Shown here: positions 8,729-44,996 of the stretch, one piece after another
Layout: every line of letters starts with the position of its first letter
How positions within the stretch are numbered: position 1 is the first letter of the stretch
Sequence record: PZ789432.1
Length of the DNA: 44,996 nucleotides
Source: a phage
Strand: one strand, 5' to 3'
The notes under the pieces: model-generated
Database searches by the model: none
What the model was told of the DNA's origin: nothing
What the model saw: the letters and a program-made list of their open reading frames with translations, nothing else
Made by a program: the position numbers and the translations under genes

Positions 8729-9191
8729 GGCAGCAGGATATACCATCAAGGAGGATGGTACTATCCTTAACCCTAAAGGTGTAATACTTAAACCGAGCCA
8801 ATCAGGAAGGAAATTAAAGTATTTATATGTAAGTTGGAGACATCAAGGAAGAAGAGTAACAGAGCTTGTACACAGATTGGTTGCTAAGAAGTACATACCC
8901 AACCCACACAGTTTACCAGAAATTCATCATAAAGACTTTAACCCTCTTAATTGTCATAAAGACAATCTTGAATGGACAGATGGTAAGACTAATTGTGAGT
9001 ATAGTTATGCAAGGGTAGAAGCTGCACTTGCACGTCATGCTACTTTATTGTCACCTGATGGCATTAAGTACGACATATTTAATGTTCGTAAATTCTGCCG
9101 CGAACATGGCCTCAATCCACCTAGTGTATTTGAGGTGCTTAGTGGTAAACGGAAGTCACATAAAGGGTGGACTATTTACCGGACACTATAG
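8703..9191 (+). CDS. HNH homing endonuclease
   Basis: 162 aa; EIHHKDFNPLNCHKDNLEW HNH motif. No in-frame ATG; starts at TTG 8703 six nt after AAGGAGG, inside the last 26 nt of the helicase gene. Confidence 0.8.
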   Translation: MLTKLKSFEAAGYTIKEDGTILNPKGVILKPSQSGRKLKYLYVSWRHQGRRVTELVHRLVAKKYIPNPHSLPEIHHKDFNPLNCHKDNLEWTDGKTNCEYSYARVEAALARHATLLSPDGIKYDIFNVRKFCREHGLNPPSVFEVLSGKRKSHKGWTIYRTL

Positions 9192-11786: not shown

Positions 11787-12445
11787 TGAAGTATGCCAAC
11801 GCGCAAATGAGTATGGAGCTAGCAACAATATACCTACTGTCCTTGACCCCTCACACTTTCTTCATGCCGAGAGACGAGGAGATCGCAAGACAGTATGGAG
11901 AGCTTGTCACTACTAAGTCTGGTGATTGGTCGGCTAGTGTTAAGAAAGACTTTCCTCACCTTAGAGGAAACCGTAATGACACGCCAAGCATCAAGTGGAT
12001 TGGCGCTTACTCGCCTGTTACTTTCGAAGAGATTCCCTTGGGTAACAGGGATACAGTTAAGCAAGTGCTCTATGATTATGGATGGAAAGGTGTTGAATTT
12101 AACGATACCGAGCAAGCGCATCTCGATGAGTACGGAGTGTTACCCAAACCTTGGAGTGGTAAGATAAATGAAAAGTCCCTCACTTTATGGCAAGAAAGAG
12201 CCGCACGTGAAGGTAAAACAGTACCTGATTGGTGCTTGGGTATCGCTGCATGGTACATACTCGTATCCCGTCGTGGTCAGATACTCAACCGTGGTGACGT
12301 TGAAGCCTTCAACGAGAAGGGGAACGTGGCCCTCGCAGGCTGGTGTACGAAAGTGTCGCGGCCTTGTACCTGTAGCATTCAACAAGGAGCTAGGAATCAA
12401 TGCGCAGCAATACTACGAGAGGTACGGATGTTGGCCTACGTCTGA
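11786..12445 (+). CDS. DNA polymerase, fragment 3 of 4; frame-disrupted
   Basis: Back in the frame of fragment 1; polymerase-like over its N-terminal two thirds. Confidence 0.7.
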   Translation: MKYANAQMSMELATIYLLSLTPHTFFMPRDEEIARQYGELVTTKSGDWSASVKKDFPHLRGNRNDTPSIKWIGAYSPVTFEEIPLGNRDTVKQVLYDYGWKGVEFNDTEQAHLDEYGVLPKPWSGKINEKSLTLWQERAAREGKTVPDWCLGIAAWYILVSRRGQILNRGDVEAFNEKGNVALAGWCTKVSRPCTCSIQQGARNQCAAILREVRMLAYV

Positions 12446-32210: not shown

Positions 32211-35200
32211 ATGGAACAAGATATTAAGACTAATTGGGCTGGATATGTCCAGTCTACTCCTGAGCCGTTTTCTATTGAGGCGGCTCCGGTATCGGCTCCT
32301 ACGATACGCCAGCGTAATGAGTTACAAGAGCAAGTTCTTGAAGCTAAAGCGGATGCTGATATCTTAGGTGCTGTAGGTGCTGCCTTCCAGAATGAGTGGT
32401 TGGCATTCGGAGGCAAGCGGTGGTATGACCGTGCCACTGCTGATTTCACACCTCAACCAGACTTCGAGATACAACCTGAGCAACGTGAAGCACTACGTTT
32501 CAAATATGGTACAGATATGATGCAGACAATCACTGAGGGTGTTCGTTCTGAGGATGAATTGAACTTCCGTATTCAGAATGCTGATGAAGACCTTGAGCGC
32601 AATAAGCGCATTGCTCAGGCTGGCTGGGTTGGCTCTGTGGCGACGATTGGCGCTGCTGTGCTTGACCCTGTGGGATGGGTTGCCTCTATTCCAACCGGTG
32701 GTGCCGCTAAAGTTGGACTCGTAGGCCGTGCTGTGCGTGGCGCTATCGCCGCTGGCGTAAGTAATGCCGCTATTGAATCCATATTGGTCCAAGGTGACAT
32801 GACTCGTGATTTAGATGACATTATGGTAGCACTAGGCTCCGGTATGGCTATGGGTGGCGTTATTGGAGCTGTAGCGCGTGGTAGGGCCACTAAGCTCAGT
32901 GAGCAAGGAGATGACAGGGCTGCGAGCATTGTGCGCAGTGCAGACGCAGGGGACCGCTATGTGCGTGCTGTTGCTGATGATAGTATCGGTGCGATGCGTG
33001 TTAAGGGTGAAGAGGTACTCACTGAGGGTGCATTTGATATCTCTAGCAAAGGTGAAGATTTGCTGAAAACCCTACAGCGGGAAGGTAATGCAATTGATAT
33101 GACCCCTCGCCGCTGGGCCGGAACTCTGTCTGCCCTTGGGACTGTCGTGCACTCCTCTCATGATACTAGTGTTCGTGGCCTCGGTGCTCGCCTGTTTGAG
33201 TCTCCGCAAGGTTTAGGTATGCAAAAGGCATCTGCCAGTCTTATGCAGAATACCAACTTGAATCGACTGAAGTCTGCTGATATGAACCGTTTCAATGACG
33301 GGTTTGACTTATGGCTCAAAGAAAATAATATCAATCCAGTTGCAGGCCATACTAACTCTCACTATGTGCAGCAATATAATGAGAAGGTATGGGAAGCTGT
33401 ACGCATCGGTATGGATGAGTCTACGCCTAAGTCTATCCGCATGGCAGCAGAGGGGCAGCAAGCTATGTACCGTGAAGCCTTAGCTTTAAGGAAGCGCTCC
33501 GGTGAAGCTGGCTTTGAAAACATTAAAGCAGATAATAAGTATATGCCTGATATCTTTGACACTATGAAAGCTCGCCGTCAATTTGATAGGATAGGAAAGG
33601 ATATAGATAAAGAAGATATCATTGAGTTATTCTCTCGTGCTTATCAGAACGGCGCTCGTAAAATTCCAAAAGAAGTAGCGGATGAAATTGCACGAGCACA
33701 AGTAAACCGCGTTGCTGGATGCCACCTTGACCGGACAGCTATGAGCTTTGAAAAGGCTATGTCTGGTCAAACCAAAGCAGAATATGAAGCACTAATGCGC
33801 AAAGCAGGCTTTAGTGATGAAGAGATTGAAAAGATGGTAGAAGCTCTGGATAATAAAGAAACCAGAGATAATATCTCTAACCGAGCTAAGATGAGTTTAG
33901 GCTTAGATGTCACTCAAGAGTACAATGGCATTCGTATGCGTGACTTTATGAACACTAACGTGGAAGAGTTAACAGATAACTACATGAAGGAAGCGGCAGG
34001 TGGTGCTGCCTTGGCTCGTCAAGGTTTCTCTACCTATCAGGCTGCACTTAATGCAATTGATCTTGTAGAGCGAAATGCACGAAATGCAGCTAAAGATACA
34101 AAAGCACACGCACAATTTGAAGCGGAGTCGGCTAAGATCCGTCAATCAGAGCCTGATTACAAGAGGGCACAAGAGAAGATTGAAGAGTTAAAGAAGCGAC
34201 TTAAATTGAAAGAGAAAGATGAAGCAGCTGGTCTGGCTATTGATGAAGAAATCCGTCAGATGCGAGAAGGGCTTCGCTTGATTATGGGTAAATCTATCGA
34301 TTCAAACCCACAAGATTTGTCTACTAAAATGCTGCGTCGTGGGCGTGACATTACAGGTGTACTTCGCTTAGGTCAGATGGGCTTCGCACAGCTAGGTGAA
34401 CTTGCTAACTTCATGGGTGAGTTTGGTATTGCTGCCACCACTATGGCTTTAGGTAAGCAATTCCGCTTCACCTCTAAGGCGTTGCGTAATGGCGATGGCT
34501 TCTTTCGAGATAAGAATTTAGCTGAGGTTGAGCGAATGGTAGGTTACATTGGTGAAGACAACTGGCTAACAACTAAGGGTGCGCGTCCAGATGAGTTTGG
34601 TGATGTAACCACAGTGCGAGGGATGATGGCCCATTTTGACCAGTCCATGAACTCTATACGACGTGCTCAGACAAACCTATCCCTCTTCCGCATGGCACAG
34701 GGTTCTCTGGAGCGAATGACCAATAGGCAAATAGCTTTGTCTTTCATTGACCATCTTGAAGGCAAGAAGATTATTCCTCAGAAGAAACTGGAGGAACTTG
34801 GTCTTACTCAGGAGTTCATGACTAACCTACAGAAGCACTATGATGCTAACTCTAAAGGCTCTGGCTTGCTTGGCTTTGATACAATGCCTTATGCCATGGG
34901 TGAAACTTTAGCTAATGCTATTCGTCGTAAGTCAGGTCTAATTATCCAACGTAACTTCATTGGTGATGAAGGTATCTGGATGAACAAAGCACTAGGTAAG
35001 ACATTTGCACAGCTTAAGTCATTCTCTCTTGTATCTGGTGAGAAGCAATTTGGTCGAGGGATTCGCCACGATAAAATTGGTCTTGCTAAGAAGACAGCTT
35101 ATGGTTTTGCTTTGGGTTCAATAGTGTATGCGGCAAAAGCCTATGTGAACTCTATTGGTCGAGAAGACCAAGATGAATATTTGGAAGAGAAGTTATCGCC

Positions 35201-35534
35201 TAAAGGGTTGGCCTTTGGTGCAATGGGTATGATGAGTACAACTGCTGTATTTAGTCTAGGTGGAGATTTCTTAGGTGGCCTAGGTGTTCTACCTTCTGAG
35301 TTAGTACAATCCCGTTATGAGGCTGGCTTTCAGACTAAGGGTTTGATAGACCAAATACCACTAGTAGGTGTTGGTCAAGATGCATATCGTTTAGCAGATT
35401 CTATAACTAAATACGCAGAGGGCGATACAGAAGGTGTAGATGTGGCACGTAGGGCTTTACGCTTAGTGCCTCTAGCTAATGTAATAGGAATCCAGAACGC
35501 ATTGCGTTATGGCTTAGATGAACTGGAGGATTAA
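32211..35534 (+). CDS. large internal virion (core) protein, T7 gp16-like by position
   Basis: 1107 aa; SD GGAGG; last of three internal proteins between tail tube and tail adaptor genes. Confidence 0.75.
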   Translation: MEQDIKTNWAGYVQSTPEPFSIEAAPVSAPTIRQRNELQEQVLEAKADADILGAVGAAFQNEWLAFGGKRWYDRATADFTPQPDFEIQPEQREALRFKYGTDMMQTITEGVRSEDELNFRIQNADEDLERNKRIAQAGWVGSVATIGAAVLDPVGWVASIPTGGAAKVGLVGRAVRGAIAAGVSNAAIESILVQGDMTRDLDDIMVALGSGMAMGGVIGAVARGRATKLSEQGDDRAASIVRSADAGDRYVRAVADDSIGAMRVKGEEVLTEGAFDISSKGEDLLKTLQREGNAIDMTPRRWAGTLSALGTVVHSSHDTSVRGLGARLFESPQGLGMQKASASLMQNTNLNRLKSADMNRFNDGFDLWLKENNINPVAGHTNSHYVQQYNEKVWEAVRIGMDESTPKSIRMAAEGQQAMYREALALRKRSGEAGFENIKADNKYMPDIFDTMKARRQFDRIGKDIDKEDIIELFSRAYQNGARKIPKEVADEIARAQVNRVAGCHLDRTAMSFEKAMSGQTKAEYEALMRKAGFSDEEIEKMVEALDNKETRDNISNRAKMSLGLDVTQEYNGIRMRDFMNTNVEELTDNYMKEAAGGAALARQGFSTYQAALNAIDLVERNARNAAKDTKAHAQFEAESAKIRQSEPDYKRAQEKIEELKKRLKLKEKDEAAGLAIDEEIRQMREGLRLIMGKSIDSNPQDLSTKMLRRGRDITGVLRLGQMGFAQLGELANFMGEFGIAATTMALGKQFRFTSKALRNGDGFFRDKNLAEVERMVGYIGEDNWLTTKGARPDEFGDVTTVRGMMAHFDQSMNSIRRAQTNLSLFRMAQGSLERMTNRQIALSFIDHLEGKKIIPQKKLEELGLTQEFMTNLQKHYDANSKGSGLLGFDTMPYAMGETLANAIRRKSGLIIQRNFIGDEGIWMNKALGKTFAQLKSFSLVSGEKQFGRGIRHDKIGLAKKTAYGFALGSIVYAAKAYVNSIGREDQDEYLEEKLSPKGLAFGAMGMMSTTAVFSLGGDFLGGLGVLPSELVQSRYEAGFQTKGLIDQIPLVGVGQDAYRLADSITKYAEGDTEGVDVARRALRLVPLANVIGIQNALRYGLDELED

Positions 35535-36497
35535 TGAGTTATACTTTCACAGAACATATAGCCAACGGTACGCAAGTAACCTATCCCTTTAGCTTTGCTG
35601 GTAGGGATAAAGGTTATCTTCGTGCCTCAGATGTGATAGTGGAGATCTCTTCAAGGTAACACTTGGATTGAGGTTACATCTGGCTGGCAACTAACTGGCA
35701 CGCACCAGATTACTTTTGATGTAGCACCAGTTGCAGGTTTGAAGTTCCGTATTCGAAGGGAAGTACAAAAGGAGTATCCATACGCTGAGTTTGACCGTGG
35801 TGTTACCTTGGATATGAAGTCTTTAAATGGTTCTTTCATTCATATACTGGAGATTACACAGGAGTTACTTGACGGGTTTTATCCAGAAGGATACTTCATT
35901 AAACAGAATGTAAGCTGGGGCGGCAATAAGATTACTGATTTGGCTGATGGCACAAATCCGGGAGATGCAGTAAACAAAGGGCAGCTTGATGCCATTGACA
36001 AGAAGCATACAGATTGGAATGCCAAACAGGACATTGAGATTGCTGGCCTTAAGGCTGGTATGACTTCTGGTATTGCGCACAGAACTGTTCCTTGGTACAC
36101 GATAGCCCAAGGTGGTGAGATTTCCGTAAAACCACCTTATGAATTTCAAGATGCACTAGTTTTCCTTAATGGGGTATTGCAGCACCAAATTGTAGGCGCA
36201 TACTCTATAAGCAACAACACTATCACTTTCGCAGAGTCGCTTGTGGCGGGTACAGAGGTGTATGTGCTGATTGGTAGTCGTGTGGCTACATCTGAACCTA
36301 ATATTCAGTTAGAGTTGAACTTTGACTTAGTAGAAGGCCAACAAGTAGTACAGATTGGCTCTGCATTTAAGTACATTGAGGTCTACCTTGATGGATTATT
36401 ACAACCTAAACTTGCTTATCAGGTAGACGGTGACATTGTTACTTTCTCAGAGGGAGTGCCAGAATGCCGGATGACTGCTAAGATTATCACAGCATAA
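35534..36497 (+). CDS. tail fiber/tailspike adaptor (T7 gp17 N-terminal-domain-like); frame-disrupted
   Basis: ATG 35534 gives MSYTFTEHIANGTQVTYPFSFAGRDKGYLRASDVIVEISSR* (ends 35659). Homology continues in another frame from ~35640 (NTWIEVTSGWQLTG...; ORF track 35739..36497). One indel near 35648..35656 restores ~321 aa. Confidence 0.7.
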
Positions 36498-39037: not shown

Positions 39038-39316
39038 ATGGCTAATGATTATAGTAGTCAACCATTAACAGGTAAGTCTAAGAGAAAGCAGGTACAACCT
39101 GTAAGTGAAGAACTAATGCTTCCGGTAATCAAAAAAGAGGAAGCTAGTAAGAAAAACAATGCTATTAATGATGCCACCAAATCAGGTAAACAGAAAGGGG
39201 CCATGGTGTGCCTTGAAGTGGAAGGTGGTGTATTGAAGATTGCTATCGCGGTTGATGGCAAAGAAGATTCAGAGTGGAAGTTAGTAACAGTGGAACCAGT
39301 TGTTAACCCAGTTTAA
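39038..39316 (+). CDS. hypothetical protein (92 aa), paralog A of a tandem pair
   Basis: ORF track 38978..39316 (GTG); ATG 39038 after AGGAG; shares SGKQKGAMV.LE...L.IA.A motif with the next ORF. Confidence 0.65.
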   Translation: MANDYSSQPLTGKSKRKQVQPVSEELMLPVIKKEEASKKNNAINDATKSGKQKGAMVCLEVEGGVLKIAIAVDGKEDSEWKLVTVEPVVNPV

Positions 39317-39334: not shown

Positions 39335-39628
39335 ATGGCTAAATATGGTACTAAAGGTTCTGTTACGGGTCAGGCTTTTCGAGTGAAAGCAGTACAAACT
39401 ATTGCAACGGCAATCCCGATGCCTGTTGTTAAAGAAGTAGACCTTAAGAGTAAAGATCACCCTATCAACATCAAACATTTATCAGGTAAACAGAAAGGTG
39501 CAATGGTTGCTCTTGAGAAAAGTGACACAACCTTACATATTGCTGTTGCACGTGGTAGTGAACCAACAGACCCTTGGGATGTAACTGGCATGGACTCGCT
39601 CGCTGTCACTCCAGCAGGTGGAGAATAA
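39335..39628 (+). CDS. hypothetical protein (97 aa), paralog B of a tandem pair
   Basis: ORF track; SD AAGGAGG; LSGKQKGAMVALEKSDTTLHIAVARG parallels KSGKQKGAMVCLEVEGGVLKIAIAVDG upstream. Confidence 0.7.
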   Translation: MAKYGTKGSVTGQAFRVKAVQTIATAIPMPVVKEVDLKSKDHPINIKHLSGKQKGAMVALEKSDTTLHIAVARGSEPTDPWDVTGMDSLAVTPAGGE

Positions 39629-39985
39629 TGCTTAACAAATACTTCAAGCGCCGTGAGTTCGCTTGCCGTTGTGGGTGCGGTACATCCACTGTTGATGCTG
39701 AATTACTACAGGTAGTCACAGATGTGCGTGAGCACTTTGGTTCGTACCTGTAGTAATCACTTCGGGGCATCGCTGTGCTAAGCACAATGCCAACGTAGGA
39801 GGAGCTAAGAAGGTTCCATGCATCTTACTGGTAAGGCTGCTGACATTAAGGTATCTAGGTGTCTGGTACCAATCGGAGGTACGTACAGTACCTCTGCTAA
39901 TAAATACCCTGATAAGTATGGCATTGGTGCTTATACCTACTTTTACCCATATCGACGTTACGAGACAACGAGTGCACGATGGTAA
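39628..39985 (+). pseudogene. endolysin, zinc peptidase M15-type, with about four frame disruptions in this sequence
   Basis: Successive frames give MLNKYFKRREFACRCGCG...VREHFGS / PVVITSGHRCAKHNANVGGAKK / SMHLTGKAADIKV...GIGAYTY / FTHIDV / ...SARW*, together the M15 hallmark. Each break is at a short G or T run. Confidence 0.75.
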
Positions 39986-40094
39986 GATGTGTTGAATGGT
40001 GTGAACGCATGGTTGCCAAAGCATCCAGAGGATGGCAACTATGATGACTGGAAGAACTACTCTGAATTGTTAGCTCAATGGAAAGGGAGATGCA

Positions 40095-40190
40095 ATGAAA
40101 AAGCTGTTTAAGTCTAAGAAGGTTGTAGGTGCACTGGTTGCACTGGTTATTGCACTTGTTTCTGTAGGTCTTGGCGTAGACCTTGGCTGA
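40095..40190 (+). CDS. hypothetical small membrane protein (31 aa)
   Basis: ATG 40095 after AAGGGAG; MKKLFKSKKVVGALVALVIALVSVGLGVDLG. Confidence 0.35.
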   Translation: MKKLFKSKKVVGALVALVIALVSVGLGVDLG

Positions 40191-40324
40191 AGGTACGGAA
40201 GGTTCCTGTCACTGACGTGGTCTGCCAAGTGATCACCTGTGAATAAGGTGCTTGAAGTGGTGGCAGGTCTTATTGGCCTGCTGCTTGCCGCTAAGAAGAA
40301 GCAAGGAAGAAAAGGAGGCACAAA

Positions 40325-40426
40325 GTGAAGCGAATCATGCTAGCGACAATCCTGCTGATTGGTTCGCTGACCACTTCCGGGTGTCAGACAGGCGTTACCA
40401 GAGAGTCCAATGGTGAAACCGTCTGA
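40325..40426 (+). CDS. small lipoprotein-like ORF (candidate o-spanin-like)
   Basis: GTG 40325 six nt after AGGAGG (or ATG 40337); MLATILLIGSLTTSGCQTG has a signal peptide with lipobox-like TSGC. No intact i-spanin ORF is visible. Confidence 0.35.
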   Translation: MKRIMLATILLIGSLTTSGCQTGVTRESNGETV

Positions 40427-40564
40427 AGCCGACGCTGACGGCAGTTTACGAGGTAGACGATAAGGTCTGCTTCAGTAAGCCTGACGCTACAAAATTAGGT
40501 TTGTATATTCTTTCGCTAGAACGCGGATATAATTAATACATAGCTTTATGTATCAGTGTCTTAC

Positions 40565-40588
40565 GATTTACTGGACACTATAGAAGAG
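40565..40588 (+). promoter_or_regulatory. phage RNAP promoter upstream of the tailspike genes (gatttactggacactatagaagagg)
   Basis: Exact consensus; +1 G at 40583. Confidence 0.8.
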
Positions 40589-40667
40589 GTAAGATAGCGC
40601 CGTTCTTTTGAGCGGCCTATTACTAGCCAATCTTCATAGGGAGGGTTGGAAAGTAATAGGAGATAGC

Positions 40668-41792
40668 ATGGCTAAATTAACCAAACCTAAGACTGAAGGA
40701 ATCTTGCATAAAGGACAATCTTTGTATGAGTACCTTGATGCGAGAGTTTTAACATCAAAGCCGTTTGGTGCTGCAGGTGACGCCACTACTGATGATACGG
40801 AGGTTATAGCTGCTTCACTAAACTCTCAAAAAGCTGTCACAGTCTCAGATGGTGTATTCTCTAGCTCTGGTATTAATAGTAATTACTGTAACTTAGACGG
40901 CAGGGGTAGTGGAGTACTAAGTCACCGTTCAAGTACAGGTAACTACTTAGTATTTAACAATCTACGTGCAGGTCGCTTAAGTAATATTACGGTAGAAAGT
41001 AATAAGGCGACTGATACAACTCGGGGACAGCAGGTATCTCTTGCTGGTGGAAGTGATGTTACTGTAAGTGACGTTAACTTCTCAAACGTTAAAGGTACTG
41101 GTTTCAGTTTAATAGCATACCCTAATGGTGCGCCACCTAATGGGCTTATGATTAAAGGTATTCGAGGTAGCTACTCCGGCTATGCTACTAATAAGGCAGC
41201 CGGATGCGTACTTGCTGACTCCTCAGTTAACTCCCTAATAGATAACGTCATTGCTAAGAACTACCCTCAGTTCGGAGCCGTAGAGTTGAAAGGTACAGCC
41301 AGTTATAACATAGTCAGTAATGTTATAGGGACAGATTGCCAGCATGTAACTTACAACGGCACTGAAGGGCCAATAGCTCCTTCTAATAACCTTATCAAGG
41401 GTGTGATGGCTAATAACCCTAAGTATGCAGCGGTTGTTGCAGGCAAAGGAAGTACGAACTTAATCTCAGACGTGCTCGTAGATTACTCAACTTCTGATGC
41501 TAGGCAGGCTCATGGTGTTACCGTAGAGGGGTCTGATACCGTCATAAATAATGTGCTTATGTCAGGATGTGATGGTACTAACTCTTTAGGACAAAGTCAG
41601 ACTGCTACAATTGCGCGCTTTATAGGTACAGCTAATAACAACTATGCGTCTGTATTTCCTAGCTACAGTGCTACAGGTGTTATTACTTTCGAATCCGGCT
41701 CTACCCGTAACTTCGTAGAGGTAAAGCACCCTGGCAGGAGAAATGACCTTCTCAGTTCTGCTAGTACTATTGACAGGTGCAGCTACTATTGA
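40668..41792 (+). CDS. tailspike 1 (beta-helix polysaccharide depolymerase, K5-lyase-like), N-terminal fragment; frame-disrupted
   Basis: ORF track 40608..41792 (TTG); ATG 40668 after AGGAG; beta-helix-like repeats; frame lost near 41775. Confidence 0.8.
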   Translation: MAKLTKPKTEGILHKGQSLYEYLDARVLTSKPFGAAGDATTDDTEVIAASLNSQKAVTVSDGVFSSSGINSNYCNLDGRGSGVLSHRSSTGNYLVFNNLRAGRLSNITVESNKATDTTRGQQVSLAGGSDVTVSDVNFSNVKGTGFSLIAYPNGAPPNGLMIKGIRGSYSGYATNKAAGCVLADSSVNSLIDNVIAKNYPQFGAVELKGTASYNIVSNVIGTDCQHVTYNGTEGPIAPSNNLIKGVMANNPKYAAVVAGKGSTNLISDVLVDYSTSDARQAHGVTVEGSDTVINNVLMSGCDGTNSLGQSQTATIARFIGTANNNYASVFPSYSATGVITFESGSTRNFVEVKHPGRRNDLLSSASTIDRCSYY

Positions 41793-42567
41793 TGGCACTA
41801 ATAATAGTAACGTAGTGCACGCACCTGCCTTAGGGCAGTACATCGGTAGTATGTCAGGTAGGTTCGAATGGCGGATTAAGTCCATGTCACTCCCTTCAGG
41901 CGTTCTTACTTCTGCTGATAAGTACAGAATGCTTGGGGATGGTGCTGTGTCATTAGCTGTAGGTGGGGGCACTTCTTCTCAAGTTCGCCTATTTACTTCT
42001 GATGGTACTTCTCGGACAGTGTCCCTCACCAACGGTAACGTGCGTCTTTCTACCAGTAGCGCAGGCTATTTGCAGTTAGGTGCTGATGCAATGACCCCAG
42101 ATAGTACTGGTACATACGCATTAGGTTCCGCCAGTCGAGCATGGTCTGGCGGTTTTACTCAAGCAGCATTCACTGTTACCTCAGATGCTCGGTGTAAAAC
42201 AGAACCTCTTACTATCTCAGATGCCTTACTGGATGCTTGGTCTGAAGTTGACTTTGTGCAGTTTCAGTATTTGGATCGTGTTGAGGAGAAAGGTGCAGAC
42301 TCAGCTAGATGGCACTTTGGCATCATCGCTCAGCGAGCTAAGGAGGCTTTCGAACGTCACGGTATAGATGCACATCGCTACGGCTTCTTGTGCTTCGACA
42401 GTTGGGAGGATGTATACGAGGAAGATGCAAATGGCTCTCGTAAACTGATTACACCAGCAGGTTCCCGCTATGGTATTCGTTACGAGGAAGTACTGATATT
42501 AGAGGCTGCGTTGATGCGGCGGACTATTAAGCGTATGCAGGAAGCACTAGTTGCCATTCCTAAGTAA
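41743..42567 (+). CDS. tailspike 1, C-terminal fragment with intramolecular chaperone (peptidase S74-like) domain; frame-disrupted
   Basis: C-terminus ...DARCKTEPLTISDALLDAWSEVDFVQFQYLD...ARWHFGIIAQ...YGFLCFD... parallels the autocleaving chaperone domain of K1F endosialidase (...GERKTEPVVFDDAFLDAWGDV...ARIHFGVIAQ...YAVLCYD). Joined length ~633 aa. Confidence 0.8.
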   Translation: MTFSVLLVLLTGAATIDGTNNSNVVHAPALGQYIGSMSGRFEWRIKSMSLPSGVLTSADKYRMLGDGAVSLAVGGGTSSQVRLFTSDGTSRTVSLTNGNVRLSTSSAGYLQLGADAMTPDSTGTYALGSASRAWSGGFTQAAFTVTSDARCKTEPLTISDALLDAWSEVDFVQFQYLDRVEEKGADSARWHFGIIAQRAKEAFERHGIDAHRYGFLCFDSWEDVYEEDANGSRKLITPAGSRYGIRYEEVLILEAALMRRTIKRMQEALVAIPK

Positions 42568-42573
42568 GCAACA

Positions 42574-42596
42574 GGCAGTGCGTAAGCACTGCTTTT
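42574..42596 (+). terminator. hairpin + U-run terminator after tailspike 1
   Basis: ggcagtgc-gtaa-gcactgc followed by TTTT. Confidence 0.55.
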
Positions 42597-42652
42597 CACG
42601 CAACTTTTCTTAAAGGTTATCATGGTGGTAGCCTTTCAGAAAAGGAGGTTAC

Positions 42653-44365
42653 ATGCTTCAAAGATTAAGTGCTTACTTGGTGAAGTACAAGAGTAAACTA
42701 ACAGGTACTATTGAGCGCCTGCTATCTGATAAACTATCGGATACAATAGACGTTGCGGATTTTGGAGTTAATCCCTCTTCTAATGACAACAGGCAAGCCC
42801 TTCAAGCTGCATTCAATGCGGTCAGATTGCTAGGCGGTGGTACTGTATCAGTCACTAAAGCTGGCGAATATAAACTCAGTGGTACTGTTGAGATATTTGC
42901 TAATACACACTTCAAGGTTGCTAAAGGTGTAACATTTGTACGTGACTACGAAACAGGAGATACGCTATTCAGATTATCACAAGGGCAAGCTAGTAATGTA
43001 ACAGTCAGTGGAGGTATCTATGAAGGCAATGGTCACACTAAGGGAGATACACCTTTTGTAGTATTTGCATCTACTAGTAATAATGATTTGAAGTTTGAAG
43101 GCATAACAGTTAACAATGTAGTGGACTACCACGCCATAGATTTAGCAGATTGGAACAACGTAGTTATTCGTGATTGTAAATTCCTAGGGTTTAAGAATAC
43201 AGGCAGTCGTAACTTCTCAGAGGCTATACAGTTAGACCCAGGTCTTATTACAGTTGGTCACTATGTACAGTCAAGCGGTATGCTGGTGGAGAATTGCTAT
43301 GCTGGTCCAAACCCAGAATCAGGGTTTGGGGGTTATGGTGCACTAATCGGAAATCACGCCTCAGCTTATGGTGTACAGGACAACAATATCCGTATCTTGA
43401 ATTGCACTACAGATGGTGCTCTCTTTGCAGGTGTACGTGTATTTAACTGGAAAAACTGGACAGTACGTGGTTGTACCTTTAGAAACTCTAATGCAAGAGG
43501 TGTTCATGTTACACCTGTCTCCTCTCAAACTAAACCGCAAGGAACTCGACAAGGTAGTGTTGTAGATTGTACTTTTGATGGCGTAAGAACACCAGTGCTA
43601 ATTGCTGCACCATCTTGGCCTTTTACAGATATTAGTGACATTTGGCATGACCATATTGAAATTTCTAATAATACTATGATCCTCACAGAGGATGTATCCT
43701 ATGGTGTAGATGCAAGGTGGTGTAAGAATTTAATTGTAAAAGGTAACACTGGTTCTGGCGGCTTAGGGTTAATCGGTTTACGCTTTGGAACAAAGTACCA
43801 CATCGAAGGTAATACTTGGGAAAACGGAAGAGGTAGTGGGATTTGGTTAGGTGAGTCTGATGCTACTACATTCATTGGTACTGGCTTATCTGGAGAAGGT
43901 ATACTTAGTCGTAATATCCTCTCTAAATTAGGGCAATATGGTATTCATGTAAACTGCAAGGCTGGCGGTCTAGTGATTAAAGCTAATAATATGAAGGAAG
44001 TATCTACAGCTGAAGCAGGTAGGCACTTCATTAGCATAGACACAGGAGCTAACAACATCCTAGTAGAAGGTAATATTGGAGTAGATGGAGAAAGCCCTAA
44101 CAAGCCAAGCTTGGGTATTCGTGTTACTTCTTCTTGTTCCAATATTAAACTCATTGGCAATGATTGCTATGGTACACAGGCGCCTCAGAATAACCAAGGG
44201 GTTGGTTCTAGTACGGTGATTGTTTATGGACTAAATGGCAATCCTACAACTTTAGGCGTAGGTGCACCTGTTGGCTCTTTAGCAACTGATATCAATGGGT
44301 CTGGTGGTAGTACATTGTACGTTAAAGAATCTGGTACATCTGCTCAAGGTTGGGTTGCAAAGTAG
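42653..44365 (+). CDS. tailspike 2 (pectate-lyase-fold beta-helix depolymerase)
   Basis: 570 aa; SD AAGGAGG; N-terminal DVADFGVNPSSNDNRQALQAAFNA...GGGTV typical of pectate-lyase-type tailspikes, followed by beta-helix-like repeats. Confidence 0.85.
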   Translation: MLQRLSAYLVKYKSKLTGTIERLLSDKLSDTIDVADFGVNPSSNDNRQALQAAFNAVRLLGGGTVSVTKAGEYKLSGTVEIFANTHFKVAKGVTFVRDYETGDTLFRLSQGQASNVTVSGGIYEGNGHTKGDTPFVVFASTSNNDLKFEGITVNNVVDYHAIDLADWNNVVIRDCKFLGFKNTGSRNFSEAIQLDPGLITVGHYVQSSGMLVENCYAGPNPESGFGGYGALIGNHASAYGVQDNNIRILNCTTDGALFAGVRVFNWKNWTVRGCTFRNSNARGVHVTPVSSQTKPQGTRQGSVVDCTFDGVRTPVLIAAPSWPFTDISDIWHDHIEISNNTMILTEDVSYGVDARWCKNLIVKGNTGSGGLGLIGLRFGTKYHIEGNTWENGRGSGIWLGESDATTFIGTGLSGEGILSRNILSKLGQYGIHVNCKAGGLVIKANNMKEVSTAEAGRHFISIDTGANNILVEGNIGVDGESPNKPSLGIRVTSSCSNIKLIGNDCYGTQAPQNNQGVGSSTVIVYGLNGNPTTLGVGAPVGSLATDINGSGGSTLYVKESGTSAQGWVAK

Positions 44366-44376
44366 TAGGAAGTTGA

Positions 44377-44526
44377 ATGCCATTAATCAAATCAGTTAAG
44401 CAAAGTGCTGTACGCCAGAACACAGAAGAGCTTATTCAATCAGGCCGTGACCCTAAGCAGGCTTATGCCATTGCCAAGGATGTACAACGTCGTGCCATGA
44501 AGAAACCTTCTGCATCTTCTGCGTAA
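44377..44526 (+). CDS. hypothetical small basic protein (49 aa)
   Basis: ATG 44377 after AGGAAG; MPLIKSVKQSAVRQNTEELIQSGRDPKQAYAIAKDVQRRAMKKPSASSA. Confidence 0.45.
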   Translation: MPLIKSVKQSAVRQNTEELIQSGRDPKQAYAIAKDVQRRAMKKPSASSA

Positions 44527-44597
44527 GCAAGTTAATATCTTAGTGTACACAAGGGCAGACCTAGGTTTGCTCTTAGTGTATTTACAATGGAGGTCTT

Positions 44598-44678
44598 ATG
44601 TATATACCTATGGAAGCAATAGTAGGTTGCCTATGCTTGTTGATAGGTTTCGTTATAGGCTTAATAGCAAATCCTTAG
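44598..44678 (+). CDS. hypothetical small hydrophobic peptide (26 aa)
   Basis: ATG 44598 after TGGAGG; weak. Confidence 0.25.
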   Translation: MYIPMEAIVGCLCLLIGFVIGLIANP

Positions 44679-44741: not shown

Positions 44742-44996
44742 GCCCTCGCCGGGTTGCCCCCATATGGGGTAGATCGGCGGTTGACCTAGGAATTGGGCTG
44801 GGCTGGTCCGTCTTCGACGGGTGGGCGAGGGCTTGCCGAGGTCTGCTCTTAGTGGCTGCACAAGGAGAACGCCTAGGAAGCGCTAGGGCACGCCTTAGTA
44901 TTGGACAAGGTGATTGCCTTAGTGAAGCCTCTTAGTGCATTCCTTAGGTCATTCAGGGCGTTTATGAGGGATTGACAGGGTGGATGGGTGTGGGCT
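44742..44996. repeat. right direct terminal repeat
   Basis: Same orientation copy of 1..257; preceded by extra ctcgccctcgccctcgcc units that the truncated left copy does not show. Confidence 0.85.

Follow-up and report, generated by a model that had tools for sequence, protein, structure and literature searches.

The receptor-binding cassette in this 44,996-nt phage sequence (PZ789432.1; the window, meaning the whole stretch of DNA analysed) is in all likelihood the standard cassette of K1-5-type vectreviruses in the LL11/KMB47/EC120/Sem1-4 variant; the extra A at 41775 that splits its first spike gene is probably an error, and an intact 632-aa spike 1 is expected in the real phage. The whole genome of a Vectrevirus (K1-5-like) is contained in the window, and the cassette is already known, consisting of a K5-capsule lyase and an uncharacterised second spike of K1-5-like coliphages. 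The pair of spikes is present in ~18 deposited phage records at ~97% nt identity (40500..44600), and the combination of the lyase with an LL11-type spike has been described (PMC6687929, PMC11162368, PMC13005862). The relevant features of the window are as follows.

35534..36497, plus strand: gp37-type adaptor ('tail fiber') gene, the predicted docking base for both spikes, located by tblastn with K1-5 gp37
40566..40588, plus strand: SP6/K1-5-type phage RNA polymerase promoter, ATTTACTGGACACTATAGAAGAG, an exact consensus match
40668..41792, plus strand: 5' fragment of the K5-lyase (KflA/gp46) gene, with 369 native codons, 5 aberrant codons and a stop
41775, plus strand: extra A, a +1 insertion that breaks the lyase frame (TTGAC[A]GGTGC), not in a homopolymer
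41776..42567, plus strand: 3' part of the K5-lyase gene, codons 370-632 and stop, out of frame with the 5' part
42181..42564, plus strand: Peptidase_S74 C-terminal intramolecular chaperone of the lyase (PF13884, residues 505-565, E = 1.5e-14)
42573..42594, plus strand: conserved intergenic hairpin with a 9-bp stem and a GUAA loop, followed by UU, annotated as a terminator in LL11
42653..44365, plus strand: tailspike 2, 570 aa, an intact ORF matching phrog_2234 (tail spike)
44377..44526, plus strand: small conserved ORF of 49 aa closing the cassette, a homolog of K1-5 gp48 and LL11 gp54
44545..44581, plus strand: strong terminator-like hairpin 3' of the cassette (dG -20 kcal/mol, z = -4.6; terminator scan)

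The arrangement of two tandem tailspikes behind one promoter, as originally predicted, was borne out by the sequence. The window holds seven copies of the promoter, against none expected by chance; the copy at 40566..40588 is the last of them, and no further copy with up to three mismatches was found from there to the genome end. The K5A record Y10025.2 has an annotated promoter that overlaps with this copy. The 85-nt spacer between the spike genes, which is near-identical in K1-5, K5A and LL11, holds the hairpin at 42573..42594 (dG -15.4 kcal/mol, z = -3.4), and the terminator scan also flagged this hairpin. The 49-aa ORF downstream is 100% identical to LL11 gp54 and belongs to phrog_2423, a family of unknown function.

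The N-termini of spikes 1 and 2 match those of gp46 and gp47, respectively, and neither spike has a T7 tail-fibre N-terminal domain according to Pfam. A BLASTP comparison of the two spikes gave E = 0.82, and no kinship between them was found at the sequence level. They had also been predicted to have different folds; in fact, both are right-handed parallel beta-helices, and what differs is their sequence and the C-terminal maturation module.

Spike 1 had been predicted as one ORF at 40668..42567, but this interval is 1,900 nt long, which is not a multiple of 3, and it is split by the +1 insertion at 41775. In the ORF list, 40608/40668..41792 and 41743..42567 are read in separate frames, and a single uninterrupted 632-codon lyase ORF is not present in the window. 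The 5' fragment matches positions 1-369 of the 632-position K5-lyase PHROG (phrog_14895, E = 2e-233), and its N-terminal 50 aa are those of K1-5 gp46 apart from K8N; the 3' ORF matches positions 368-632 of the same PHROG (E = 4e-162), as well as PDB 2x3h and 9vvr. When the A at 41775 was removed, the repaired spike 1 differed from K1-5 gp46 at 13 of 632 residues, was identical to K5A KflA at 619 of 633 translated positions (stop included) and matched PDB 2x3h, the K5 lyase, over residues 1-505 with E = 0. The predicted K5-lyase size, beta-helix and endosialidase-type S74 chaperone are thus all found in the repaired frame, but not in the frame as given. The S74 domain contains the autocleavage motif S505-DARC-K510 with its Ser/Lys dyad, and the mature crystallised KflA chain (PDB 2x3h) stops at residue 505. 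The KflA fold (PDB 2X3H) was reportedly found by Thompson et al. in 2010 to be a right-handed parallel beta-helix. Because spike 1 is ~98% identical to this biochemically and structurally characterised lyase, the K5 heparosan capsule, cleaved by beta-elimination, can be inferred as its substrate, and the earlier statement that substrates cannot be read from sequence was too cautious for this spike. The beta-eliminative cleavage of heparosan by K5 lyase is summarised in PMC5380687.

The extra A was located by alignment with the lyase genes of LL11 and K1-5, which are 1,899 nt each; among the sequences aligned (the window, LL11, K1-5, EEc4 and K5A), the window alone has it. None of the 53 phage records bearing this segment has it, and all of them encode the lyase in one frame. 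In addition, the 23-mer junction with the extra A had no match in IMG/VR, JGI metagenomes or GTDB genomes; the intact junction occurs in 4 IMG/VR contigs. Relative to LL11, K1-5 and EEc4, the window carries 30 private frame-breaking indels, among them four in the DNA polymerase gene and one each in the exonuclease, scaffold and gp37 adaptor genes, the adaptor being indispensable to any spike; 15 lie within 39744..40421, just 5' of the cassette. The lysis genes also carry single-base insertions that resemble sequence errors. Given this pattern elsewhere in the window, the A at 41775 most probably arose during sequencing or assembly and is not biology.

If instead the frameshift were real, which we consider quite improbable, the isolate would have no functional K5 lyase and would effectively be a one-spike phage relying on spike 2, much as in K1E, which retains just a short remnant of the first-position spike. 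The insertion lies outside a homopolymer and is therefore not the most typical sequencing error, and the 374-aa product, although still equipped with the peptide that docks to the adaptor, would be missing both the S74 domain and the C-terminal portion of the spike, so that it could not trimerise. The first 27 residues of the lyase are also hit by a PHROG of 111 positions with unknown function, which may be this K1E remnant. According to PMC5380687, one spike position of K1E is occupied by a protein that is truncated and inactive. Moreover, EEc4 has an independent 1-nt deletion in its lyase gene, although the annotation gives intact versions of the DNA polymerase and other genes, so that the lyase could conceivably have been lost for real in this lineage; however, this deletion falls in a CCC run and could be an error too. 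Among the matches listed (of 65), EEc4 alone also has a split lyase, and a recurrent decay of the lyase was dropped as an explanation because this one case at a CCC run is too little for a trend. Against a real loss, the 29 other private frame-breaking indels affect genes including the DNA polymerase and the adaptor, and a lytic phage that truly had all of them would not be viable; in addition, the allele at 41775 was seen nowhere else in the records and databases searched. Furthermore, there is no decay 3' of the break: downstream of 41775, the window and K1-5 differ by 11 synonymous and 7 non-synonymous codon changes with no internal stop, and constraint on these lyase codons is not relaxed.

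It is extremely improbable that the lyase is still made from the split gene, either through a +1 ribosomal shift near 41775 or as two polypeptides (residues 1-374 and a product from the ATG at 41743) that assemble. The codon created by the insertion is AGG, a rare codon in E. coli, and a private C-to-T change at 41744 creates the downstream-frame ATG with an AGGAG before it at 41736..41740. However, the spacing from this Shine-Dalgarno sequence to the ATG is only 2 nt, and in the lyase frame the change at 41744 is synonymous, replacing one Asn codon by the other; the ATG, where the ORF list starts the 3' part, thus looks incidental. A programmed +1 frameshift was rejected: the site lacks a slippery motif, tRNA-Asp slipping by +1 from GAC would meet ACA, which is non-cognate, and the site is not conserved, with all 53 relatives single-frame. 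Assembly from two chains is also opposed by the chaperone, since the C-terminal chaperones of endosialidases and the K5 lyase act within their own polypeptide chain.

Spike 2 is one intact 570-aa ORF at 42653..44365, exactly as predicted. It differs from LL11 gp53 at 7 residues and is at least 97% identical in ~22 vectreviruses. A gp47-like N-terminal docking peptide (~residues 1-28) is followed by a right-handed parallel beta-helix body; the AlphaFold model (pLDDT 85.9, pTM 0.87) shows beta-strand rungs across residues 63-506, with the C-terminal 60 residues forming a small beta-rich region of lower confidence. With Pfam at E <= 0.01, PF13229 Beta_helix matched residues 142-290 with 40.8 bits, and PF05048 NosD reached 23.5 bits, just under its cut-off of 23.6. 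The predicted absence of an S74 chaperone was confirmed, Pfam giving no PF13884 match in spike 2, whereas the predicted pectate-lyase-type N-terminus was not: Pfam found no PF12708 (Pectate_lyase_3) match at E <= 0.01, Beta_helix alone scored clearly, and PF12708 is confined to distant homologs with at most 33% identity. Structure comparison, which had been proposed as a check, was run with Foldseek and returned PfbA, the HK620, Sf6 and CBA120 TSP3 tailspikes and the AlgE4 epimerase (probability 1.0, TM ~0.45-0.5, ~15% identity).

The closest solved structure to spike 2, by both sequence and structure, is PfbA, which its PDB entry describes as a surface adhesin of Streptococcus pneumoniae. This would suit a spike 2 that is a non-catalytic beta-helix adhesin, in which case the cassette would hold two binding specificities and one enzyme; catalytic residues could not be assigned, and Pfam gave Beta_helix and NosD only, with no glycosidase or lyase family. 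Nevertheless, we regard an adhesin as unlikely. The next structural matches, from the tailspikes to AlgE4, are enzymatic, and the columns H160, Q193 and H235 are invariant across homologs down to 23% identity, with D163, E190 and D195 at least 90% conserved; all six lie on the helix body and are compatible with an active site. KMB47, which has spike 2 together with the K5 lyase, also forms halos, although the lyase could be their source (PMC11162368). The same study reports halos for KMB14 as well, and the host on which halos were scored is not stated.

A depolymerizing spike 2 remains the preferred reading. As a hint to its receptor, KMB47 (lyase and LL11-type spike 2) plaques on CFT073, whereas KMB14 (lyase and another second spike) does not (PMC11162368). 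Our literature search returned no report of a depolymerase activity or substrate for spike 2, and the supplement of PMC10408124 gives no serogroup for the LL11-type spike. Searched at the DNA level, complete E. coli genomes contained no match to spike 2. Outside enterobacterial phages, the N-terminal half of spike 2 is nearest to spikes of Bacillus (SPO1 group), Staphylococcus and Streptomyces phages and to pneumococcal PfbA. We presume that wall teichoic acids are the targets of these spikes from Gram-positive phages, and the K2 capsule of E. coli, a polymer of galactosyl-glycerol-phosphate, is teichoic-acid-like. It is tentatively possible, if rather doubtful, that spike 2 is the first identified depolymerase for the K2 capsule; the O6 O-antigen or another surface glycan of CFT073 is equally allowed by the evidence.

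The adaptor gene was recovered by tblastn with K1-5 gp37 in two pieces, residues 1-37 lying in frame 2 and 37-320 in frame 3, at 97-99% identity. It carries a window-private 1-nt insertion at ~35645, and the comparison with the LL11 gp37 homolog is likewise split. Cryo-EM of K1E and K1-5 placed six copies of each spike trimer on the adaptor (Leiman et al. 2007, as cited in PMC5380687). By analogy with these phages, both spikes of the window would be mounted on the virion through gp37.

In the mechanism that we propose, the phage RNA polymerase would transcribe both spike genes from the promoter at 40566..40588, with the 85-nt hairpin spacer between them. Spike 1 would form a trimeric right-handed beta-helix that cleaves the K5 heparosan capsule by beta-elimination, and its S74 chaperone would aid folding and then cut itself off at Ser505. 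Spike 2 would most likely bind and degrade a second surface polysaccharide on strains such as CFT073 (O6:K2:H1). The two spikes would dock to separate sites on gp37, each through a short peptide at its N-terminus, in the geometry of K1-5 and K1E, and with separate docking the virion would carry both specificities.

The gain for biology is small, as the dual-spike design and the exact pair of lyase and LL11-type spike have been published and deposited often. For annotators, the single-base insertions in the K5-lyase, gp37 adaptor, DNA polymerase and lysis genes look like sequence errors; automated annotation of this record would list the spike as truncated, and the K5 host range could then be called lost in error. 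Spike 2 is widespread, occurring in the ~22 vectreviruses and, as ~50% identical relatives, on P22-like and other phages, and its substrate, once defined, would make it easier to predict the host range of phages against uropathogenic E. coli (UPEC).

Among known systems, K1-5, which carries the gp46 K5 lyase and the gp47 K1 endosialidase on gp37 (Scholl 2001, Leiman 2007), shares its genus, gene order and promoter sequence with the window. The first spikes are 98% identical and the gp37 proteins 99%, the 85-nt spacer with its hairpin is near-identical, and the +1 insertion in the lyase is present in the window but not in K1-5. The docking peptides of the second spikes are related (MLQRLSAYLVKYKSKL... 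in the window and MIQRLGSSLVKFKSKI... in K1-5), whereas the bodies differ, being a 570-aa beta-helix without S74 in the window and an 811-aa endosialidase beta-propeller in K1-5. Homology to K1-5 is lost from ~42706 and is back at 44371, 5 nt past the stop of gene 2. The kflA locus of K5A (Y10025.2) shares the promoter, lyase and spacer up to codon 6 of the second gene (MLQRLS), and homology ends 17 nt into that gene; consistent with the predicted exchange of the cassette, the second-spike position is thus a swap hotspot. Beyond residue 6, the second ORF of K5A is unrelated to spike 2 (19 of 147 aligned residues identical). We therefore rejected the idea that spike 2 corresponds to the second ORF of classical phage K5, since spike 2 and the partial K5A ORF have only their first 6 residues in common.

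The beta-helix body of spike 2 is homologous over its full length to the tailspike of a P22-like prophage of E. coli ST131 (P0006) and to similar spikes, at 45-51% identity. These relatives sit on phage types other than that of the window, and the ~50% identical spikes have PF18668 or PF09008 N-termini (P22 head-binding or TSP1/gp66-type) instead of the short gp47-type peptide. The P22-like spike occurs in 24 complete E. coli genomes, several of them labelled O25b:H4-ST131. A transfer of specificity from this 47%-identical ST131 O25b:H4 prophage spike was rejected as too divergent; at an identity of only ~50%, the two probably differ in specificity. The same pair of spikes as in the window is found in the group of LL11 (MH729818), which comprises KMB47, EC120, 101101UKE1, 6948/6949, EEc2/EEc4, Sem1-4, LI10P3/P5 and G9. 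Here the cassette is 96-97% identical at the nt level and spike 2 97-99% at the aa level, with the same flanks, and the differences from the window are point differences only, apart from the A at 41775 in the window and the 1-nt lyase deletion of EEc4.

The 251-bp direct terminal repeats of the window are perfect (1-251 and 44742-44992), which shows that the linear genome is complete; another four bases stand after the right repeat, at the window end. The phage is a member of Vectrevirus, the genus of K1-5-like coliphages (Autographiviridae, Molineuxvirinae). The region spanning both tailspike genes (40500..44600) was matched over its full length at 96-97% identity by 18 phage records, including LI10P3, KMB47, EC120, 101101UKE1, 6948/6949, EEc2/EEc4, LL11, Sem1-4 and G9, whereas in K1-5, AAPEc6, VEc3 and KMB14 the identity was confined to the first ~60% and the second spike differs. 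Elsewhere in the genome, an HNH-endonuclease-like ORF lies between the helicase and gp10 homologs (~8733-9179); its product shares 33-40% identity with three HNH proteins of LL11, and it probably represents a mobile homing endonuclease that has inserted here. A tandem pair of small paralogs (39038-39313 and 39335-39619), ~34% identical to each other, is homologous to K1-5 gp41 and gp42; their LL11 annotation as acetyl-CoA acetyltransferase is dubious.

Elements of the tailspike cassette
40566..40588, exact match to the phage promoter consensus ATTTACTGGACACTATAGAAGAG
40668..42567, tailspike 1 (spike 1), 1,900 nt
42573..42594, hairpin in the inter-spike spacer (dG -15.4, z = -3.4); the LL11 annotation lists it as a terminator
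42653..44365, tailspike 2 (spike 2), one ORF of 570 aa, exactly as predicted

The original prediction treated tailspike 1 as one gene, but its span holds two ORFs in different frames, the first ending at 41792 and the second starting at 41743. When the span was aligned globally with the K5-lyase genes of LL11 and K1-5 (1,899 nt), the sole gap was an extra A at 41775 (TTGAC[A]GGTGC). As encoded, the first product comprises 369 native and 5 aberrant residues, and the K5-lyase PHROG (632 positions) is matched over 1-369 by the first fragment and over 368-632 by the second. With the extra A removed, the repaired protein differs from K1-5 gp46, the first spike of that phage, at 13/632 residues and is identical to KflA of K5A at 619/633 translated positions (stop included). 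Its residues 1-505 match the solved K5 lyase (PDB 2x3h) and residues 31-630 a newer tail-spike entry (9vvr); in the repaired frame, the C-terminal chaperone that had been predicted was found as a Pfam Peptidase_S74 domain (residues 505-565) with the Ser/Lys autocleavage motif S505-DARC-K510. Given the near-identity to gp46 and KflA, the 2x3h match and the S74 domain, repaired spike 1 is, judged by sequence, the K5 lyase itself, so its description as a protein of that size was right but understated. That the K5 heparosan capsule is its substrate can likewise be inferred with confidence (review PMC5380687), and the view that substrates cannot be read from sequence was over-cautious for this spike.

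We then considered whether the frame break is an error or real. The extra base was present in 0 of 53 phage records holding the surrounding 151-nt segment, and the insertion-spanning 23-mer had no match in IMG/VR, JGI metagenomes or GTDB genomes, whereas four IMG/VR contigs carry the junction in its intact form. Comparison of the window with LL11, K1-5 and EEc4 further revealed 30 indels that break reading frames and are private to the window, of which 26 are insertions; the private insertions in conserved essential genes are 1-4 nt each.

Private indels in the window
11340, 11784, 11901-11904 and 12322, four frame-breaking indels, DNA polymerase gene
17005, insertion, exonuclease gene
23710, insertion, scaffold gene
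33717 and 33740-33741, insertions, gp36
~35645, 1-nt insertion (GTGGAG[A]TCTCTT), gp37 adaptor gene (35534-36497)
39744..40421 (~680 nt), 15 insertions of 1-2 nt, gp43 peptidase (endolysin-like) and gp44/gp45 spanin genes

The DNA polymerase gene is broken into five frame segments, and the gp37 adaptor is, apart from its insertion, 97-99% identical to K1-5 gp37. The 39744..40421 cluster, immediately upstream of the cassette and before the spike promoter, looks like a low-quality sequence stretch. Because a viable lytic phage cannot bear four DNA polymerase frameshifts together with a broken adaptor, the private indels are best read as sequence errors in an error-prone record rather than as biology. 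The extra A in the lyase gene conforms to this pattern and is therefore most probably a sequence artefact.

A real, recent knock-out of the lyase would agree with the position of the insertion outside any homopolymer and with the broken lyase gene of EEc4, but the absence of the extra A from every collection searched and the abundance of similar indels in the window make it improbable. The repaired lyase matched 65 records (tblastn), and among the matches listed the gene was whole in all but EEc4. The EEc4 break is a separate event, the loss of one C from a CCC run 71 nt upstream of the window's insertion, and is either an error in a homopolymer or another instance in which the lyase has been lost; in that record (ON210145.1, 41519-41628; window ~41704) the lyase is annotated as two CDSs and the other genes as intact. 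Downstream of the window's break the lyase codons contain no internal stop, and synonymous and non-synonymous codon differences from K1-5 stand at 11:7, similar to the 19:6 of the upstream part. That the lyase is made despite the extra base, by recoding or from a split gene, is very unlikely: the insertion lacks a slippery site, the S74 chaperone acts in cis, and the ATG opening the ORF 41743..42567 was created by a C-to-T substitution at 41744 that is private to the window and synonymous (AAC to AAT, Asn359). This ATG is probably incidental, since the preceding AGGAG lies only 2 nt away (window 41736-41745). An artefact thus remains our preferred explanation of the frame break.

For spike 2, Pfam identified Beta_helix at residues 142-290, with NosD just under its cut-off. 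It gave no Pectate_lyase_3 match, at odds with the proposed pectate-lyase-type N-terminus, and no S74 match, in agreement with the proposed lack of a chaperone domain. The sole solved relative by sequence is PfbA, a pneumococcal beta-helix adhesin (3zpp, E = 4e-9). The AlphaFold model, built on 14 homologs, was confident (pLDDT 85.9, pTM 0.87) and predicts a long right-handed beta-helix spanning residues ~63-506; confidence is low for the N-terminal peptide and reduced over the last 60 residues. Foldseek against the PDB returned PfbA first; behind it came three tailspikes (HK620, Sf6 and CBA120 TSP3) and the epimerase AlgE4, with ~15% identity and TM ~0.45-0.5 throughout. The predicted fold is thus that of tailspikes in general, and no characterised enzyme is close to it. 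Six conserved residues of the helix body (H160, D163, E190, Q193, D195 and H235) may mark a catalytic site. KflA is reportedly a right-handed parallel beta-helix too (Thompson et al., 2010), and the claim that the two spikes have different folds is therefore wrong. They show no sequence kinship (BLASTP, E = 0.82), and the C-terminal maturation module is not the same in both.

The promoter consensus occurs in 7 copies in the genome (0 expected by chance), none of them downstream of 40566..40588, which supports a single promoter for the cassette at the sequence level. The 85-nt inter-spike spacer is nearly identical in the window, K1-5, K5A and LL11. Homology to K5A stops 17 nt into gene 2, where MLQRLS alone is common and the remaining K5A ORF is unrelated, and homology to K1-5 picks up again at 44371, just ahead of a small gp48-like ORF. 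[quoted passage not shown] Taken together, the conserved flanks, homology breaks and gp47-like N-terminus argue that the second position is a clean swap cassette between conserved recombination arms, consistent with the predicted exchange. Spike 2 itself is at least 97% identical in ~22 vectreviruses, and in relatives of ~50% identity the same body is joined to a different virion anchor, either PF18668 or PF09008, the P22 head-binding domain. One is a genuine P22-like prophage tailspike (E. coli GCA_017038635.1, locus L007, 6001-8079), in which the P22 head-binding domain is fused to a body that shares 47% identity with spike 2; this tailspike occurs in 24 complete E. coli genomes, of which several bear the label O25b:H4-ST131.

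The dual-spike architecture was already described for K1-5 in 2001. If K1-5 and K1E serve as a guide, both spike trimers would sit on the gp37 adaptor, KflA would degrade the K5 capsule, and spike 2 would recognise, and probably degrade, a second glycan. The expected masses are ~52 kDa for mature KflA and ~61 kDa for spike 2. No receptor assignment for spike 2 was found in the literature, and the sole functional hint that we found is a comparison of two halo-forming phages: KMB47, which has the lyase and this type of spike 2, plaques on CFT073 (O6:K2:H1), whereas KMB14, with the lyase, a different second spike and an 89% identical genome, does not (PMC11162368). This comparison hints that spike 2 finds its receptor on CFT073, where it would be the K2 capsule or the O6 antigen. 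The original prediction missed one defect, the frame break that is probably an error, besides its wrong claim on folds and its undue caution over spike 1; it correctly recognised the cassette, which is an ordinary, already known module, the same pair of lyase and spike 2 having been described in LL11 (PMC6687929), KMB47 (PMC11162368) and Sem1-4 (PMC13005862).
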